DNA of 64,000 nt from Octopus vulgaris (lineage: Eukaryota): the NCBI GenBank assembly GCA_951406725.2, contig OX597815.1:48422001-48486000 (forward strand), given 5' to 3'. A program made the position numbers and the translations under genes. This document shows, piece after piece, positions 9,751 through 63,270 of this stretch; positions within the stretch are counted from its first letter, which is position 1, and each line of letters begins with the position of its first letter. The notes below the pieces were generated by a model, which saw only the letters and a list, made by a program, of their open reading frames with translations, was not told the origin of the DNA and made no database searches.

Positions 9751-10635
9751 TTGCGTAAGCTCGCAAGAAATGAAGCTAGTATGCTCCGTTGGATGTGTAA
9801 TGTCAGTGTTCATAGTTCACAGAATGTAAGTACCTTGAGAGAAAAGTTGGACCTAAGAAGCATCAGTTGTTGTGTGCAAGAGAGACAATTGCGCTGGTAT
9901 GGTCATGTGGCGAGAATGGATGAAGATAGGTGTGTGAAAAAGTGCCACACCCTTGCAGTTGAGGGGACCTGTGGAAGAGGTAGAACCCAGGAAAACCTGG
10001 GACGAGGTGGTGAAGCACGACCTTCGAACTTTAGGTCTCACCAAGGAAATGACTAGTGACCGAGACCTATGGAAGTATGCTGTGCGTGAGAAGACCCGGC
10101 AAGACCAGTGAGAACAGTCAAAATCAAAATCAAACCAAATCAAATCAGATATCAGAAAGCAGAACCAAAATCGAGGTCGATCAACATCAGTGGAAATTGC
10201 AGCTGTGGTTAAGCGAACCATCCGATCGTGGTCGTTGCCGGCACCGCCCCGTCTGGCCTCCGTGCCGGTGGCACGTAAAAGCACCATCCATTCGTGTCTG
10301 TTGCCAGCTTCGCCTGGCCCTCGTGCCAGTGGCACGTAAAAGCACCATCTGTTTGTGTCCGTTGCCAGCCTCGCCTGGCCCCCGTGCCAGTGGCACGTAA
10401 AAGCACCGTCTGTTCGTGGCTGTTTGCCAGCTCTGTCCGGCACCTGTGCGGGTGGGACGTAAAAAGCACCCACTACACTCACGGAGTGGTTGGCGTTAGG
10501 AAGGGCATCCAGCCGTAGAAACACTGCCAGATCTGACTGGGCCTGATGAAGCCTTCCGGCTTCACAGACCCCAGTTGAACCGTCCAACCCATGCTAGCAT
10601 GGAAAACAGACGCTAAATGATGATGATGATGATGA

Positions 10636-22282: not shown

Positions 22283-23107
22283 TTAACCCTTTTGGCATCC
22301 AAATTACTCCGTCAAGTTGTAATGATGTAATAATCTTTCATCATGTGATACAAGATCACCTCCTCCAATGCTGCACACCTCTCAAAGATTCCTTGTCTTG
22401 CAAATTACTTGGTGCCCCTGGCAGTGCTTGTGACATGTGAAATGCACCCAGTCCACACTGTGAAGTGGTAGGCATCCAGCTATTAAAAATCATGCCAAAA
22501 CTGACCTTGCCCATGCAGATGCCACATAAAAAGCTCTCAGTCCACTCTACAGGTTGGTTGGTGTCAGGAAAGGTATCCAGCCATAAAACCCATGCCAAAA
22601 CAAATACAGTGGCCTGGTGTAGTCTTCTACCGGGCCAACTCTTGTCAAACTGTCCAACTCATGCCAGCATGGAAAATGGACGCTAAATGATGATGATGAT
22701 TCTTTTGAATTCATCATTTATTATCTTGTGGCTTTGAGATTTCGATGGTGTGATTGTTTATTTTTTAGAATGGCATTATCAGGTAAGTGTAAGAAACTGA
22801 ATCTGGCCAGATTGATCCTAAAACAAATAGATATTATTGACTTGTAGATACACAATATTTTGTTATACAACTACAATATGCTACAAAGTATTTTCACCAT
22901 TTTTATAAGTCAGTACTGTGTACTACTGTGTTAGCAGTGCACTTAAATCACGTGTTAAAGTCATCTCATTAGATTATGTATAGAGATTATTGGCATCAAT
23001 GATTTTGTTACAACGTTTCATATCTGAAATGTCACATGCAAACATACAATGCAAAACTAATGGAATATTTGGACTGGATATGGTTGGTTTAAATGCTAAA
23101 GCGTTAA
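22283..23107. mobile_element. piggyBac-type MITE (TTAA-flanked) with nested insertions
   Basis: ttaa-cccttttggcat ... atgctaaagcg-ttaa. Contains an RTE-type 3' end at about 22330-22700. Confidence 0.6.
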
Positions 23108-23229: not shown

Positions 23230-23582
23230 GTTACCTGCGTTGCCTTACTGGCACTTGTGCTGGTGGCATGTGAAAGAGCATTTGGGCGAGGTCGTTGCCA
23301 GTGCCGCTGGACTGGCTCCTGTGCAGGTGGCACATAAAAAGCACCAATTGAGCGTGGCCATTGCCAGTACCTCCTGACTGGCCCTCGTGCCGGTGCCATG
23401 TAAAAGCACCCACTACACTCTCAGAGTGGTTGGCGTTAAGAAGGGCATCCAGATGTAGAAACTCTGCCAGGTCAGATTGGAGTCTGGTGCAGCCATCTGG
23501 TTTGCCAGACCTCAGTCAAATCATCCAACCCATGCTAGCATGGAAAGCGGACGTTAAACAATGATGATGATGATGATGATGA

Positions 23583-23585
<3 letters not shown>
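23230..23585 (+). mobile_element. RTE LINE 3' end
   Basis: 3'UTR repeats, catgctagcatggaaagcggacgttaaa and (GAT)n. Confidence 0.88.
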
Positions 23586-23654
<69 letters not shown>

Positions 23655-23658
<4 letters not shown>

Positions 23659-24499
23659 TAAGTAATTAAGGGTTTAGCAACGATTTGCCTCACCACACAC
23701 CGAATTTAGAAATAGCAGTCAAAGAGTTATAGCTATTCTTTCTACTAAAAGGGAGATCTCAGTAAAACCACAGCACTTGAAAGGCAAACACAGACAGGCA
23801 AGAGAGAAAGAAATGACGGCAATCTATCATACAATTTTAAGTCACCTACGGACGTACGTTTCGAAATTAAGTTTTAGGAAAGCATAAGAATTAGATAATT
23901 ATGTCTTACCCAACTTCTTTTCTCATCAGCGTAGGACACTACAATTATGAATAATTGTATATTAAATTCCGAGATACTAGAAGGCATCATCTCAACTCAG
24001 TATCAGAGCGAGCTAAAACCGTTACCAGTATCACCAAATTCAAAGTGTGAATGAAAGTTTGTGTCACCAACCCCTTCCCACCAGCGTGTAGCCAAGACAA
24101 GATGTTGTGGTCATCTACTGGGATGAAATATGGTTATCAGAAGTTGGGTAAGACATAATTATCTAATTCTTATGCTTTCCTAAAACTTAATTTCGAAACG
24201 TACGTCCGTAGGTGACTTAAAATTGTATGATAGATTGCCATCATTTCTTTCTCTCTTGCCTGTCTGTGTTTGCCTTTCAAGTGCTGTGGTTTTACTGAGA
24301 TCTCCCTTTTAGTAGAAAGAATAGCTATAACTCTTTGACTGCTATTTCTAAATTCGGTGTGTGGTGAGGCAAATCGTTGCTAAACCCTTAATTACTTAGT
24401 ATTACTTAAACTTTCCTCGAATGAGGCTTTTACATGCCGAAATCTACTTGGTGAAATTAATGATTATTCCAAATTAATTAATTTCACCCTATATTATTA

Positions 24500-24503
<4 letters not shown>
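23655..24503. mobile_element. Very young PLE-type fold-back: 264-bp inverted arms 23655-23918 and 24139-24402, 220-bp spacer, ~100-bp tail, embedded in (TA)n
   Basis: Arms identical except for one mismatch seen (gacggc versus gccatc). Confidence 0.92.
23845..23935 (-). ncRNA. Canonical type I hammerhead ribozyme with extended helix II
   Basis: Minus strand: cctacg-CTGATGA-gaaaagaagtt...aacttaatttc-GAAAC-gtac-GTC-cgtagg. Perfect 6-bp helix I, intact core, palindromic helix III (ACGTACGT), GUC cleavage triplet. Confidence 0.88.
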
Positions 24504-24540
<37 letters not shown>

Positions 24541-25699
24541 GTGCAAGTTCAGTGGTTAGAGTGTTGGGCTTACAACTGTAAGGTTGTGAGTTTGATTTCT
24601 GGACTGCGCTGATTTTTTCCCTGTAAATTTGGATTTATTCCCTAATATTTATTATTATATATATACACACACACACATGCACACATATGCATAAATATAG
24701 GATACATATAAATTATACACTAGATAGCATAGCTGCTGAACTAAAATTCTACCTTATTCACGCAAGTATCCAACTACAAACTAATACACTTAAGAATATG
24801 TATAAAGACACATATTAAACGCATACAGGCTTTATCCTATATACATAAACATGCACAGGTATAAAAATACACGCATAAATACAAACATAACATATATACT
24901 TATAGAAACACATAGGTATACAGACATTCACGCACACAATCATACGCACACATTTTTATATTTATTAAAGGGATATACTATCCTGGTGGTTACCGTGTTT
25001 CTTCTTAAGTTGGTTTCAGATGCTGGCTAACCACAATGGTCCTTTAGTGATACCTGAGTTAACAATTAGTTGCCACAGGTGAAACATGTGTAGGTCCCTA
25101 ATGATGCTGTATATAACTGTTATATATAAAATTTTGGATGTGAAAAATCTCTGCTCCCCTTATCATTATTAATTATATATATTTGTGTGTGTGTTCACTG
25201 AAACACAAACACACACATATAGCCATACAAAGTCAACTACACACATACACACACAAATAGAAATAAATACACACACACAGATTGATATATATGCAAACAA
25301 ATACCCACGCAGACTACATATGCACATTGTACAAACATGAAGACAAATAAGTGCACATATATATATATACATTTTATATATTTATACTGTGAAATTTGAT
25401 TTAATACTAAATCGAATTTTTCCATGTAAGTTTGGAGCTATACTCCTTAATATTATTATATATATATATATACACACACACAGACATATACACATACACA
25501 ATACAAACTCATGGACATATATACAAACATTTGGGGATACACACACACACAGCACGCACATGTATATATGAGTAAATATGTACTTTATTATGGACAGACA
25601 TAATATTCTATATACCAAAACACTTTAAACAATCATTACATTTGTTATTGACAAAATTTCTTTGAAAATATTAATATAATCTCTGTTTCAAGTATTACT

Positions 25700-34038: not shown

Positions 34039-34515
34039 TCATCATCATCGTTTAACGTCCGCTTTCCATGCTAGCATGGGTTGGACGATTTTGACTGAGG
34101 GCTGGCGAACCAGATGGCTGCACCAGGCTCCAATCTTGATCTGGCAGAGTTTCTACAGCTGGATGCCCTTCCTAACGCCAACCACTCTGAGAGTGTAGTG
34201 GGTGCTTTTTATGTGCCACTGGCACGGGGGCTAGTCAGGCAGTACTGGCAATGACCACGCTCGAATATTTTTACACATGCTGGTAACGATCATGCTTGAA
34301 TGGTGCCTTTTATGTGCCACCAGCACAGAAGCCAGTTAGCCGCTCTGGCAACGATCACACTCGGATGGGGCTCTTAGCACCCTACTTGCATGAGCACAAG
34401 TGCCAGCAAAGCGACGCTGATAACGATCCCACTCGAATGGTGCCTTTTATGTGCCACTGGCATGGAAGCTGGTTAGCCGCTCTGTCAACGATCACACTTG
34501 GATGGTTAGTGCACC
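34036..34515 (-). mobile_element. RTE LINE 3' end
   Basis: (CAT)n-cgtttaacgtccgctttccatgctagcatggg plus 3'UTR repeats. Confidence 0.88.
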
Positions 34516-34539
34516 ATATATATATATATATATATATAA

Positions 34540-34804
34540 TCATATCAAAGGGAAATGGAAATTAATAGAAATTTTCACTTCCAGTGGCCTAGCATGTAAA
34601 AATTTTGTCCAAAGACTATGTATCACTCATAAAAAAAAAAATACAGTGTACATTTATACACATAAGAGGAGTCCACTTATGGGATTCATCACACTAGAAA
34701 GAACAGCTAGGTTCTAAAACTTTGATCAGGTTTTAGAATCTAGCTGTTTTTCTAGCGTGATAAATCCCATGAGTGGATTCCTCATATGTGCATAAATGTA
34801 CACT
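34540..34804. mobile_element. TA-flanked fold-back (arms 34645-34720 and 34730-34804), related to 38400-38720
   Basis: Hairpin centred on TGATCA. The left part is homologous to 38400-38570. Confidence 0.75.
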
Positions 34805-43562: not shown

Positions 43563-44175
43563 TCATCATCATCATCATTTAGCGTCCGCTTTCCATGCTA
43601 GCATGGGTTGGATGGTTCGACCGGGGTCTGTGAAGCCAGAAGGCTGCATCATGCCCAGTCTGATCTGGCAGTGTTTCTACGGCTGGATGTCCTTCCTCAC
43701 GCCAACCACTCCGTGAGTGTAGTGGGTGCTTTTTGTGTGCCACCCGCACAGGTGCCAGACGGAGCTGGCAAATGGCCACGGACGGATGGTGCTTTTTACG
43801 TGCCACCGGCACGGGGGCCAGGCGAGGCTGGCAACGGCCAAGATCGGATGGTGCTTTTTACGTGCCACTGGCACGGGGGCCAGGCGAGGCTGGCAACGGC
43901 CACGAACAGATGGTGCTACGTGCCACCGGCATGGGGGCCAGGCGAGGCTGGCAACGGTCATGAACGGATGGTGCTTTTTACGTGCCACCGGCACGGAAGC
44001 CAGTCGGGGTGGCGCTGGCAACGGCCACGATCGGATGGTTCGCTTACTTGTCACCGGCACTGGTATCATAGCTGCAATTTCCATTGATGTTGATCGACTT
44101 CGATTTTGGTTCTGCTTTCTGATATCTGATTTGATTTGGTTTGATTTTGATTTTGATTTTTTGATTTTTTTGATT
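43563..44175 (-). mobile_element. RTE LINE 3'UTR with tandem ~55-60-bp repeats
   Basis: Near-identical to the reverse complement of 10120-10638. Confidence 0.9.
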
Positions 44176-44177
44176 TT

Positions 44178-44213
<36 letters not shown>

Positions 44214-50609: not shown

Positions 50610-50985
50610 ATGAGGTCTGATCAAAGAGTATCAGGACTGTTGCTATGGTAACAGAGTTAAAGAACACAGATTGAAGCCACTTGGCACAGATTGATCTTGA
50701 ACTCTGTCATGCTAGGTTATAATGTTCTCACTTGTGTTGTTAATAGCAGTGCTTGGAGGTAAAGTGTGCAGAGCACGGTCATCTCAAAAAGGAGATCAGG
50801 TCTCAGCTGTGCAGGATCTCCTTGACTAAGATGAAAACTTTTGAAAATGGTCATAACAGGTGATGAATCATGGATCTATGGCAATGACCCTGAAATCAAG
50901 GTGAAAATCAAATCTATCTTTAAAGGAGCAAGATTTCAAGAAGTCAAGGAAATCCAAGGGAATACAAAGAAGTTCCAGGAAGATT
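50610..50985 (+). mobile_element. Internally deleted mariner element
   Basis: TIR-like atgaggtctgatcaaagagtatcaggactg. LKMVITGDESWIYGNDPEIK is joined directly to KIKSIFKGARFQEVKEIQ. Confidence 0.75.
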
Positions 50986-51484
50986 AAGTGCCTGGAGATG
51001 GTAGTGCTGCCCTGGGTCAAGAAGGTGACTGCTGGAAGAACCTATATCTGGCAACAGGACTCAGCATCATGCCACACAAGCAGGAGAACCCAGTCATGGC
51101 TGTCAGACAATTTCTGTGACCACATCACCCCTAACATCTGGCCACCTAACTCTCCAGACTGCAACCCTCTTGATTATTGTGTGTGGGGTGCAGTTGAGCA
51201 AGAGGCCAACAAAATTCCTTGTTACACTAAGGATGAACTGATGACAAAGTTTATAGTAACATTTACCAACTTAAACAAAGGGACTGTCCAGAAGAGTTGC
51301 AGGAGATTCCAATGTCATTTGGAGGTCGTGGTTGAAGCTAATGGGGATTTTATTGTATAAATTTACTCTTTAGTATTTCAAGATATTTAATGTAATTTTG
51401 GTAAATATATCTGTTAAAATGAGATGTCAGTGTTATTTTCATTTTTGCATAATTTAGATGACACTTTACTCACCACACCCTGTA
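50986..51484 (+). mobile_element. maT (DD37D) transposon 3' half
   Basis: QQD-(37 aa)-D spacing in WQQDSASCH...WPPNSPDCNPLDY. Ends ...cacaccctg-ta. Confidence 0.85.
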
Positions 51485-59961: not shown

Positions 59962-62900
59962 TCATCATCATCATCATCATCAGCATCATCGTTTAACGTC
60001 CACTTTCCATGCTAGCATGGGTTGGACGGTTCAACTGGGGTCTGGGAAGCCCGAAGGCTGCACCAGGCCAGTCAGATCTGGCAGTGTTTCTACAGCTGGA
60101 TGCCCTTCCTAATGCCAACCGCTCCGTGAGTGTAGTGGGTGCTTTTTATGTGCCACCGACACAGGTGCCAGACGAGGCTGGTGAACGGCCACGCTCGGAT
60201 GGTGTTTTTTATGTGCCACCGACACAGGTGCCAGACAAGGCTGACGAACGGCCATGATCGGAAGGTGTTTGTTACGTGCCCACAGCATGGAGGCCAGTCG
60301 ATGCGTTACTGGCTACGGCCACGTTCGGCTGGTCTTCTTATGTGCCACTGGCACTAGTACCACTAAAATGCAAATTCATTGATGTTCATTGATTTTGATT
60401 TGATTTGATTTGATTCGATTCTCACTTGCCTCAACAGGTCTTCACAAGTAGAGTTATGTGTCCCAAGAAGGAAGGTATGCACAGGTGGACTGACTACATC
60501 CCAGGTAGGGGCCATGGGTTATGGCCTCACGTGTCCTGCCGGGTCTTCTCACGCACAGCATACTTCCAAAGGTCCCGGTCTCTGGTCATTTCCTCGGTGA
60601 GACCTAAAGCGCGAAGGTCGTACTTCACCACCTTGTCCTAGGTTCCCTCAACTGCTAGGGTGTGGCACTTTTTCACACAACTATCTTCATCCATTCTTAC
60701 TACCTGTCCATACCAGCGTAGACGCCTCTCTTACACACCACATCTGATGCTTCTTAGGTCCAACTTTTCTCTCAAGGCACCTACATTCTGTCGGGTATGA
60801 ACACTGACATTACACATCCAACGGAGCATACTGGCTTCATTTCTTGCGAGCTTACGCATATCCTCAGCAGTCACAGCCCATGTTTTGCTGCCATGTAGCA
60901 TGGCTGTTCGCACACATGCGTCATACAATCTGCCTTTTACTCTGAGCGAGAGGCCTTTTGTCACCAGCAGAGGTAAGAGCTCTCTGAACTTTGCTCAGGC
61001 TATTCTTACTCTAGCAGTTACACTTTCGGCACACCCACCCCCGCTACTGACTTGGTCACCTAGGTAATGGAAACTAATCAACTATTTCAAGTTTTTGTCC
61101 CTGGAATGTGGCGGAAGATGGTCTCATTTTCAGTCTTTATTGAACCAGAACATCTGCCACATACAAAAACTATCTTCCTAGTTAGCCTTCCTTTGACATT
61201 GCTGCACCTCTTATGTGTCCATAGCTTACACTTGGTGCATCTTATAGAGTTCCTACCTACGCCTTTTCTACAGATCGAGCAGGGCCATCTACCTGAAGGC
61301 GTTTGAGATTTGTCTACCTTCCTACTTATTAGGACTTTGGTTTTAGCTAGATTGACTCTAAGGCCCTTCGATTCTAATCCTTGCTTCCACGCCTGAAACT
61401 TCACCTCGAGTTCTGATAGTGATTCAGCAATTAGAGCAAGGTCATCAGCATAGAGGAGCTCCTAGGGGCATCCTGTCTTGAATTCCTCCATTATTGCCTG
61501 GTGGACTATGATAAATAGGAGAGGGGCTGAGGACTGAGCCTTGGTGGACCCCAACCTCCACCTGGAATTCTTCACTGTACTCGTTGCAACCCTCACCTTA
61601 CTAACAGCGTCCCTGTACATGGCATGTACAGCTCTCACTAACCATTCATCTATCCCTAGTTTCCTCATTGACCACCAGATAAGGGATCGGGGGACCATGT
61701 CAAAGGCTTTCTCCAAGTCAACGAAAGCCAGGTACAGAGTTTTATCTTTGGCTAGGTATTTCTCCTGCAGCTGTCTCACCAGAAATATGGCATCAGTGGT
61801 GCTTTTCCCTGCGCTTTAGGTCTCAAACTGCATCGCGTCTAGGTTGACTCTCTCTCTAATCAGTTGGGCTATGACCCTTTCCGTAACCTTCATTACCTGA
61901 TCCAACAGCTTAATACCTCTGTAATTACTTGTATGTAGGGCGTCACCTTTACCTTTGTAGCAGTTGACTATTATGCTACTACACCAGTCATTGGGTATGA
62001 CTCCTTCGTGTATCACCTGGTTAACTATATGGGTGACTAGGCTATAGCCGACACTGCCAGATATTTTGAGCATCTCAGCAGTAATTCCTGATGGGCCTGG
62101 GGCTTTCCCTGTCTTCATGCTTCCAATTGCCTTAACTACCATGGAACTGTCAACTCGGATAGCTGGTCCCTCTATTGGGTCGACATTCGGCAAGCTCTCT
62201 TTATCCCATTCATTCTCTTTGATGAGCAACCTTTCATAGTGGCATCTCCAAACCTCTCTCTTTGCATCCTCATTTAGCGCAAGTGAACCATCATCCATGC
62301 GAACACATTTCTCTCCTACCACATCACGATTCTCTCTCACACACTGTCTTGCAACACGAAACACCTCAAGTCTTTGGTCCTCACGGCGCAGAACATTGGC
62401 AAATTTTTTCTTATCTGCTTCCCCTCTAGCTAAATATACTTGTCTCCTAGCTTCTCTTTTCGCAGTCTGATACAATTCCCTACTACCGCCTTTCCTCCAG
62501 TCCTTCCAAGCCTGTCTCTTGTCTCTAATAGCCCTGTCTACAACATTGTTCCACCACCACGTTACCCTGGGACGAGATGGGACTTTGCTCCATCCACAGA
62601 TCTGGTCAGTGGCTCTCTCAGCAGATTGTCCCGTAGAAACCTCCAGTTAACTTCCACATTATGTGATGCTATATCCCCTTCTATTTCGTCGAAAGCTTCG
62701 AGTAGAACTTCTCTAAATCTCCATCCATTTACAGGATCTTTAAGTTTCCAGACTCTTCTCCTCCAAGCTGGTCTTCTTCTGGGCAGCCATTTGGCCCTGA
62801 TCCTGAGGTCGCTAACTACTAATCTATGTTGAGGAGTACATTCCTCGCCTGGAAAGGTTTTGGCATTTATAAGCAGCCCTCTTTCCCTCTTTCTGGCGAG

Positions 62901-63270
62901 GATGTAGTCCATCTGGCTTGTGTGTCTGCCAGAACGGTAGGTGACTAGGTGAGAGGTGGGTTTCCTGAAGCTGGTATTGCAAATCATAAGGTCATTTGCA
63001 TCGCAGAACTCCAGCAGCCTGGTTCCCTCATTGCGAGAACCAAAACCGTAGCCCCTGTGTATGCTATGGAAGCCCCTGACATGCCATCCAACATGTCCAT
63101 TGAAGTCACCTGCCACAAAGAGAAGGTCACTGTCATTTGTCAACGAGGTAGTCTGTAATAGAGTGTCATAGAATCGGTCTTTCTGTCCCTTCTGGTAGCC
63201 CCGGCTGAGGAGCATATGCCGAGATAATGGTTGCTGACCTATGATAAAGCACTAGTCTAATCTTAAAATC
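59962..63270 (-). mobile_element. RTE-clade LINE, 5'-truncated inside the APE endonuclease; ORF broken by frameshifts and stops
   Basis: SAYAPQ, GDFNGH, KAPGPSGI, NYRGIKLL, AFVDLEKAFD, LLYADDL, MLRWMC; 3'UTR repeats; (GAT)n tail. Confidence 0.95.

Follow-up and report, generated by a model that had tools for sequence, protein, structure and literature searches.

How did a hammerhead ribozyme come to lie inside a near-perfect inverted repeat in the genome of Octopus vulgaris, and to what kind of element does it belong? We addressed this question in a window of 64,000 nt (contig OX597815.1), by which we mean the whole stretch of DNA analyzed, together with contigs from public sequencing runs. 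The reading that we favor, with moderate confidence, is that the motif is part of a 583-nt non-coding hammerhead repeat, likely a PLE-dependent non-LTR retrozyme, that the locus is a single twin-primed insertion of 1.45 units, and that the duplex of its arms is predicted to silence the ribozyme.

The window is AT-rich and microsatellite-dense, and no second family copy was found in its 64,000 nt. A broken LINE remnant on the minus strand (61090-63251), which we take to be RTE-like by resemblance, has matches to Exo_endo_phos_2 and RVT_1 and a C-terminal cysteine-rich match, spread over several frames, and a DDE_3 transposase remnant on the plus strand (50905-51357) lies below the Pfam cut-off. 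The (TA)n run to the left of the element is abutted by another repeat (23247-23586), with a 66-bp internal tandem unit and an (ATG)n tail, which is probably a SINE or the 3′ end of a LINE; look-alikes are present near 22514-22700 and, by similar translations, near 9853-10593, 34287-34717, and 43579-44181. To the right of the right-hand (TA)n run, a tRNA-like SINE head with A- and B-box-like motifs was recognized by eye (24538-24610), and a related pair of stretches is found at 24611-24693 and 25414-25496.

Hammerhead Motif and its Detection

A preliminary description of this DNA had claimed an intact hammerhead core and a perfect helix I, and both were located on the minus strand. The type I hammerhead motif (23845..23935), mapped by its core and helices and by a descriptor, consists of the 5′ strand of helix I (23935-23930), CUGAUGA (23929-23923), a 60-nt helix II region (23863..23922), GAAA (23862-23859), U16.1 (23852), C17 (23851), and the 3′ strand of helix I (23850-23845). 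Helix I has six Watson-Crick pairs with pair probabilities of 0.94-1.0 in a fold with 15-nt flanks, and in this predicted fold it continues beyond an internal loop. The stretch from GAAA to C17 (23851..23862) includes helix III, formed by A15.1-U16.1 and C15.2-G16.2 with a GUAC loop, and contains an 8-nt palindrome. All features of a type I hammerhead (CUGANGA, GAAA, UH, helices I-III, and an open helix I) were found. The cut is predicted between 23851 and 23850, the position claimed previously, which agrees with the mapped C17; cleavage itself is a prediction.

The helix II region starts with a 4-bp proximal stem (G10.1-C11.1 being the first pair), for which the predicted fold gives four pairs at a probability of about 0.7, followed by a 2x2 internal loop and an imperfect extension. 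Among the pairings proposed for it earlier, GAAA/UUUC and CAUAA/UUAUG occur in the minimum-energy fold, whereas the register of the middle stem was slightly off, AAGU/ACUU plus UGGG/CCUA being predicted instead of aaguu/aacuu. By itself, the region is moderately stable (-10.7 kcal/mol; 33 of 1000 shuffled sequences equally stable). Since 17 of 200 shuffles were as stable as the isolated 106-nt motif (z of -1.33), the latter has no unusual stability.

The length of helix II had been called atypical, and 60 nt is indeed well outside the 7-8 bp of minimal PLE hammerheads (PMC4209133). The accompanying remark that PLE hammerheads have short helices is partly right, the minimal PLE helix II being, with 7-8 bp, longer than usual (PMC4209133). 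According to the same source, the consensus of minimal PLE hammerheads comprises an extra base between A9 and G10.1, a short helix I, a 5-8-bp helix II, and a small loop; the present motif has no base between A9 and G10.1 and its helix II is too long for this class. Helices II termed "long" in the literature have 6-8 bp (PMC13725137, PMC4209133), and the accessible portions of PMC3088659 and PMC11722881 contain no longer case. In the literature that we covered, incompletely for supplements and for work on PLE hammerhead dimers, we found no inverted retrozyme insertion and no hammerhead, whether from an animal retrozyme or from a PLE, whose helix II reaches about 60 nt.

A strict hammerhead descriptor, composed post hoc with the motif already known, gave one match in the window and none in 400 simulated windows, and a loose descriptor gave four matches in the window. 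Rfam reported no hammerhead at the gathering score in the window, nor at E values up to 10 in 23600-24500, likely because of the 60-nt helix II. Published descriptors allow spacers of 7-17 nt or of up to 50 nt (methods of PMC8557442). Judged from the sequence of this element, such descriptors and Rfam would overlook its long helix II, and counts of animal hammerheads may thus be low. A pattern scan for the two core motifs returned 107 metagenome and 17 viral loci; because all of these 124 loci were limited to three or fewer pairs in helix I and lacked similarity to the element in BLAST, they were taken as chance matches. The family-specific pattern was found in neither viral contigs nor prokaryote genomes (0 in both).

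Predicted Activity as a Dimer

Dimeric cleavage had been suggested, and as a prediction it stands. Two copies fold into a double hammerhead at -59.0 kcal/mol, as against -50.8 kcal/mol for two separate molecules (2 x -25.4), and the duplex of the 8-nt palindrome has -9.8 kcal/mol. In the monomer, the active fold lies 3.2 kcal/mol above the minimum, and the dimer is predicted to adopt the double-hammerhead form unaided. The dimer fold would free the core, which makes cleavage as a dimer plausible: two hammerheads would pair via the helix III palindrome and cut at GUC, as known retrozymes do. The 4-bp proximal helix II and the internal loop would stand in for a normal helix II and loop 2, the internal loop after the four pairs perhaps taking over the tertiary contact of loop 2, and the remainder of the 60-nt region is predicted to be a tolerated extension. 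The axolotl HHR_Amex1, which has a weak one-pair helix III and a palindromic tetraloop, cuts well only as a dimer (PMC7229834). In Xenopus, eight of nine predicted retrozyme dimers failed to cleave in vitro and one cleaved (10.64898/2026.07.22.740005), so that activity is not assured by sequence alone.

Structure of the Insertion

The near-perfect 264-bp inverted repeat noted previously was confirmed: its arms (23655-23918 and 24139-24402), 264 nt each, have one mismatch (23817/24240). Read along the minus strand, an inverted piece extending from helix II to the end of the unit (24139-24505) is followed by a non-inverted piece extending from the start of the unit to 23655. Together these amount to 1.45 units, of which the 5′ part is inverted; they are flanked on both sides by (TA)n runs and contain one complete hammerhead motif. 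The non-inverted piece (23655..24140, minus strand, 486 nt) is composed of a 222-nt upstream segment, the full hammerhead, and a downstream segment reaching the first 3′ end point; this 3′ end followed by (AT)n is also present in one contig of run X13. The piece ends at 23655 within the left-flank (TA)n run (23585..23657, 36.5 copies), likely half of the target. The 220-nt spacer between the arms (23919..24138, minus strand) belongs to the unit itself, being the sequence that lies upstream of its ribozyme.

At the head-to-head inversion junction (24139..24140), the two pieces share a 2-nt microhomology (AG). The inverted arm (24139..24402, plus strand) is 5′-truncated inside helix II, and its hammerhead is incomplete, CUGAUGA and the 5′ strand of helix I both being absent. 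A tail of about 100 nt (24403..24502, plus strand), covered by family contigs, is attached to the right arm only. Where it ends, CTGATA (24500..24505, plus strand) exactly matches the opening six bases of the minus-strand piece (24140-24135), marking the head-to-tail join of the unit, and the right-flank (TA)n run (24503..24537) has 17.5 copies. The tail includes a 12+4-bp hairpin (24450-24488), the 12-bp stem having a predicted probability of 0.95. Lying just inside the second 3′ end point, this hairpin is a candidate recognition signal for a helper reverse transcriptase; a common family change at 24454 breaks one of its pairs, barring an unseen partner change. On the plus strand, GT after helix I, a pyrimidine tract, and AG at 24213-24281, mirrored in the left arm, form a candidate 69-nt intron like those of PLE repeats; no joint skipping it was present among the aligned contigs, which drop rare forms.

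The Repeat Family and its 583-nt Unit

At least 20 of the 24 public runs listed contain the stretch or a part of it (nine studies, five organism labels), and among these none is recorded as RNA, which has no bearing on expression. Contigs of four runs, the DNA runs X2 and X5 and the runs X12 and X13, whose RNA status is a guess, were aligned to 23895-24506 at 80% likeness, yielding 2410, 2069, 179, and 147 contigs, respectively. Since there are thousands of them and most are less than 99% alike, the family is a variable one with many copies; summed contig depth does not equal copy number, and all aligned pieces listed are shorter than 300 letters. The contigs reveal neither ends, strand, nor circularity of RNA.

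In six X5 contigs, the letters of helix I and CUGAUGA immediately precede the long helix II, and in X12 and X13 there are contigs that link the half with the core to the distal part of helix II (sides of 55 and 57 letters). Because contigs of these three runs carry both the core and the long helix II, the latter is a family trait. A second form of its distal part appears as loose ends in all four runs. U11.3>C accounts for 6-40% of contig depth, and its counterpart A10.3>G was seen only once, in a loose end not linked to it. No core or helix I change was found among the 40 variant rows listed (of 100), an absence that falls short of significance (roughly 0.13, estimated by hand). At an X5 loose end before 24157, one contig reveals a subfamily with U4>C in the core together with G at 10.3; it may represent a copy that has decayed or else natural variation in the core. 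Five further inversion-type joints with other break points were detected in X2 and X5 (depth 44-132), two of them with at least 31 letters on the short side. In an X2 inversion joint from 24104 to 24463, the six intervening letters are CTGATA, as at the unit's join. Single contigs have (AT)n loose ends behind 24402 and 24501 (the latter in X12), among the 24 of 272 loose ends listed.

The end of the right arm is joined to the start of the minus-strand piece in X5, X12, and X13 (joints 24140/24499, 24134/24505, and 24127/24505, on opposite strands), that is, in three of the four runs, and is absent from the joints listed for X2. Four contigs have at least 31 letters on both sides of the join (three from X13 and one from X12, two studies); two X5 contigs reach depths of 4089 and 1407, but their short sides have only 22 and 19 letters. 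Family contigs and the join are both present in X12 and X13. The window agrees with the join, the last six bases of the plus-strand arm being the first six of the minus-strand piece. From the contig joints and this six-base identity, we infer a closed unit of 583 nt in head-to-tail organization, of which the window spans 1.45 units. The unit has 36% GC and longest stop-free frames of 48 aa (sense) and 69 aa (antisense); its 11 short frames gave no Pfam match above the cut-off, and an ORF with RT and GIY-YIG endonuclease was not found in it. Like retrozymes, it is short and non-coding, with one type I hammerhead and a GC content under 50%. The unit has the appearance of a non-autonomous repeat of the retrozyme type, carrying a hammerhead of the canonical rather than the minimal PLE type, and is likely to belong to the non-LTR retrozymes.

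As a possible but doubtful alternative to this closed unit, the element may be a linear, SINE-like non-autonomous PLE comparable to MRC1 in Chlamydomonas, its natural ends lying at 24140 and about 24502. The join would then be only the kind of partial tandem that arises when PLEs insert, with no circle or cleaved monomer, and each arm would stem from a separate priming event, on the same linear monomer or on two of them. The unit's own ends would explain the six-base coincidence, and non-autonomous PLEs with head-to-tail insertions have been described (PMC8557442). Mutants of the anole PLE ribozyme insert unimpaired, the main template being uncut RNA (PMC11167929), and both arms at our locus cross the cut site; furthermore, the antisense pieces of four other inversion junctions stop at 24017-24121, none going past 24140. 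Against a linear element, the hammerhead is of the canonical retrozyme type (6-bp helix I with a loop beyond, 4-bp proximal helix II, no extra base after A9), a dimer-dependent ribozyme would benefit from multimers, and the join is at one place, repeated in three of the four runs.

An origin from the pseudo-LTR end of an autonomous PLE, 5′-truncated and inverted, which the preliminary description implied, is improbable. The insertion anatomy is that of PLEs (PMC8557442), and truncated Schistosoma PLEs have opposite-strand hammerhead pairs 100-700 bp apart (PMC4209133). The 3′ end of the unit, however, joins directly to the upstream segment with no ORF between, the short frames have no Pfam match as mentioned above, and no extra base follows A9, where minimal PLE hammerheads typically have one. 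In addition, the share of aligned depth continuing into unlike sequence is 0 in both DNA runs, which is weak evidence given the short contigs.

Predicted Fold of the Unit

Folded as a circle, the 583-nt unit has a predicted energy of -150.7 kcal/mol (z of -5.3, none of 60 shuffles being as stable), with helix I at a probability of 0.91-0.97. Since the antisense strand has a z of -1.1 and four control stretches range from -2.2 to +0.8, the strong fold is confined to the strand with the ribozyme. The upstream and downstream segments form 38 pairs with a probability above 0.8, and 24111-24051 is predicted to pair with 23830-23767, which would place the ribozyme at the tip of a long stem. As in retrozymes, this highly self-paired predicted fold leaves the ribozyme free. 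With the tail flipped, the fold is still strong (z of -3.15), so that it is by itself no proof of the join.

Replacement by the majority family letters lowered the energy in all four runs (-158, -164, -157, and -164; range -157 to -166 overall), and none of 45 random sets of same-type changes per run was as stable; the pooled set gave -165.8 (0 of 100). This test used 39 of the 40 variant rows listed (of 100), 24240 being omitted as a site where the unit already has the family letter. Helix I and the proximal helix II are retained in the predicted fold under majority letters. Two compensatory pairs, not phased on one molecule, lie outside the ribozyme (24020/23983 and 23953/23946), and single variants do not avoid pair-breaking (11 of 39 vs 13.6 expected, P of 0.18).

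Proposed Mechanism of Insertion

The link to PLEs drawn in the preliminary description is supported by the insertion anatomy, although the hammerhead is not of the minimal PLE type. The locus has the footprint of a PLE insertion, namely, an inverted truncated copy, a one-sided tail, and a microsatellite target. For PLEs, Craig et al. described (TA)n targets, an inverted copy truncated at its 5′ end, and, on one side, a tail of 30-40 bp (PMC8557442). According to Frangieh et al., a PLE protein nicks and extends both strands, two internal start sites bound the tail, and uncut RNA is used (PMC11167929).

Following the life-cycle scheme of known retrozymes (PMC7229834, PMC7761336), head-to-tail copies would be transcribed into multimers and cut to monomers; these may then be circularized by ligation, and a helper reverse transcriptase would copy the circles beyond unit length. 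Judging from the anatomy of the locus, an endonuclease would nick both strands of one (TA)n run. One strand would be primed at the position equivalent to 24402 and copy 486 nt; on the other, priming would occur in the preceding unit, some 100 nt beyond (24502), and about 364 nt would be copied. The two cDNAs would then be joined head to head at the 2-nt microhomology. Because both cDNAs cross the cleavage site, the template would have been uncut or re-ligated there. The geometry is compatible with twin priming, which cannot be told apart here from priming on two RNAs; the two were not separable in a study of L1 either (PMC2837659). The tail of 100 nt, longer than the 30-40 nt described, and the unit of 583 nt, longer than the 170-400 nt of tested animal retrozymes, weigh against the proposed scheme.

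Much more tentatively, circular retrozyme RNA might be copied directly by a PLE RT from two fixed starts on both nicked strands, each inverted insertion of the family being a dated footprint of the partnership between PLEs and retrozymes, and the 60-nt helix II might define a class of animal hammerheads missed by current descriptors, possibly as a docking site through which the helper protein controls cleavage. We regard this extended proposal as rather unlikely.

Age of the Insertion and Read-Through RNA

The insertion had been called very recent. One change in 264 paired sites argues for a young insertion, and this change is a CpG-type G>A at 24240, the locus having A and the family G (43150 of 43197 depth units in X2 and 320016 of 320747 in X5). 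Youth is thus supported, while its degree rests on one mismatch; the estimate has a wide error, and arm-to-arm conversion could mask age. Minority letters are common to both arms at five sites (24189, 24214, 24244, 24248, and 24258), which points to one subfamily template for both. None of the 32 contig pieces listed (of 4850) bridges the window junction 24138/24139, which has no bearing on polymorphism.

A DNA-level origin of the inverted repeat (fold-back repair with later arm conversion), or an assembly artefact, would make the locus uninformative on age and mechanism. The (TA)n runs on both sides are fragile and hard to assemble, and conversion could maintain arm identity. However, the right arm cannot have been copied from the left one, since it has 100 nt of family sequence missing from the left piece; within the family unit, the two pieces follow each other to within six bases; a CpG-type change distinguishes the arms; and comparable inversions are present at other loci. 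We judge this explanation very improbable.

For the preferred retrozyme insertion, RNA read through the locus is predicted to form the 264-bp duplex without self-cleavage. In minus-strand read-through RNA, 74 of the 91 ribozyme bases are taken up by pairing with the antisense arm, which lowers the predicted probability of helix I to near 1e-68. This arm is transcribed first on the minus strand, and for a transcript ending just past the motif the predicted value is likewise near 1e-68; a brief kinetic window for cleavage may lie outside the reach of this equilibrium model. The single copy is probably inert, and possibly a source of 264-bp double-stranded RNA if the locus is transcribed. In a search for a host exon, 145 of 238 complexity-filtered frames (from 635 of at least 45 aa, a length that short exons would escape) gave only transposon remnants and two weak sub-threshold matches. 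The earlier suggestion of a sense intronic ribozyme, and with it a minus-strand host gene that uses the motif as a self-cleaving regulator, is therefore hardly credible despite the intact core and the overlap of about 43% of Xenopus retrozyme copies with introns (10.64898/2026.07.22.740005), the ribozyme being predicted to be buried in the duplex and the copy being a young member of a mobile family.

Comparison with Known Systems

Metazoan non-LTR retrozymes, as far as described in PMC7229834 and 10.64898/2026.07.22.740005, resemble the element in their non-coding unit with one canonical-type type I hammerhead, GC under 50%, head-to-tail join, and strongly self-paired predicted fold with the ribozyme free. 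The weak helix III and palindromic tetraloop are shared with axolotl HHR_Amex1. In contrast, helix II of metazoan retrozymes has 4 bp and a small loop, compared with 60 nt here, and the present unit is seen as an inverted 1.45-unit insertion. Its 583 nt exceed the 170-400 nt of tested retrozymes and are within the 51-972 bp given for units in the preprint (10.64898/2026.07.22.740005), which derives retrozymes from PLE pseudo-LTRs.

With EN+ PLEs (PMC4209133; PMC8557442; PMC11167929), the element shares the inverted 5′-truncated copy beside the 5′ end, the one-sided tail, the (TA)n target, two apparent 3′ end points, and a type I hammerhead near the 3′ end. Unlike them, it has no RT or GIY-YIG ORF, and its tail is 100 nt in place of 30-40. 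It also differs from the hammerheads of PLE pseudo-LTRs, having no extra base after A9, a helix II far beyond 7-8 bp, and no intron evidence. Twin-priming 5′ inversions of L1 (PMC2837659) are similar in the inverted pieces of one template, the joined 5′ ends with microhomology, and the match of the inverted piece's outer end to the inner end of the other piece; unlike L1 inversions, the pieces overlap in sequence, and neither poly(A) nor a readable target duplication is present. A repetitive template would let the pieces overlap and so form the 264-bp inverted repeat. The hammerheads of ASBVd (PMC6155905) are also type I-like, cleave as dimers, and have a weak helix III. Their helices I and II are not sharply delimited, a precedent outside animal genomes for an extended helix II. 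ASBVd differs in being a viroid RNA with ribozymes in both polarities, whereas the element is genomic DNA with the ribozyme on one strand only.

The enzyme that moves animal retrozymes is a hypothesis, for which PLEs are strong candidates (PMC7229834), and the 2026 preprint, in its accessible parts, adds sequence kinship and little on the life cycle (10.64898/2026.07.22.740005). With a retrozyme-type unit that has a PLE footprint, the mover of animal retrozymes becomes testable from the break points of many copies. The ribozyme class and the inverted PLE footprint are each already known; here the two come together in one family, along with a helix II that evades descriptors.
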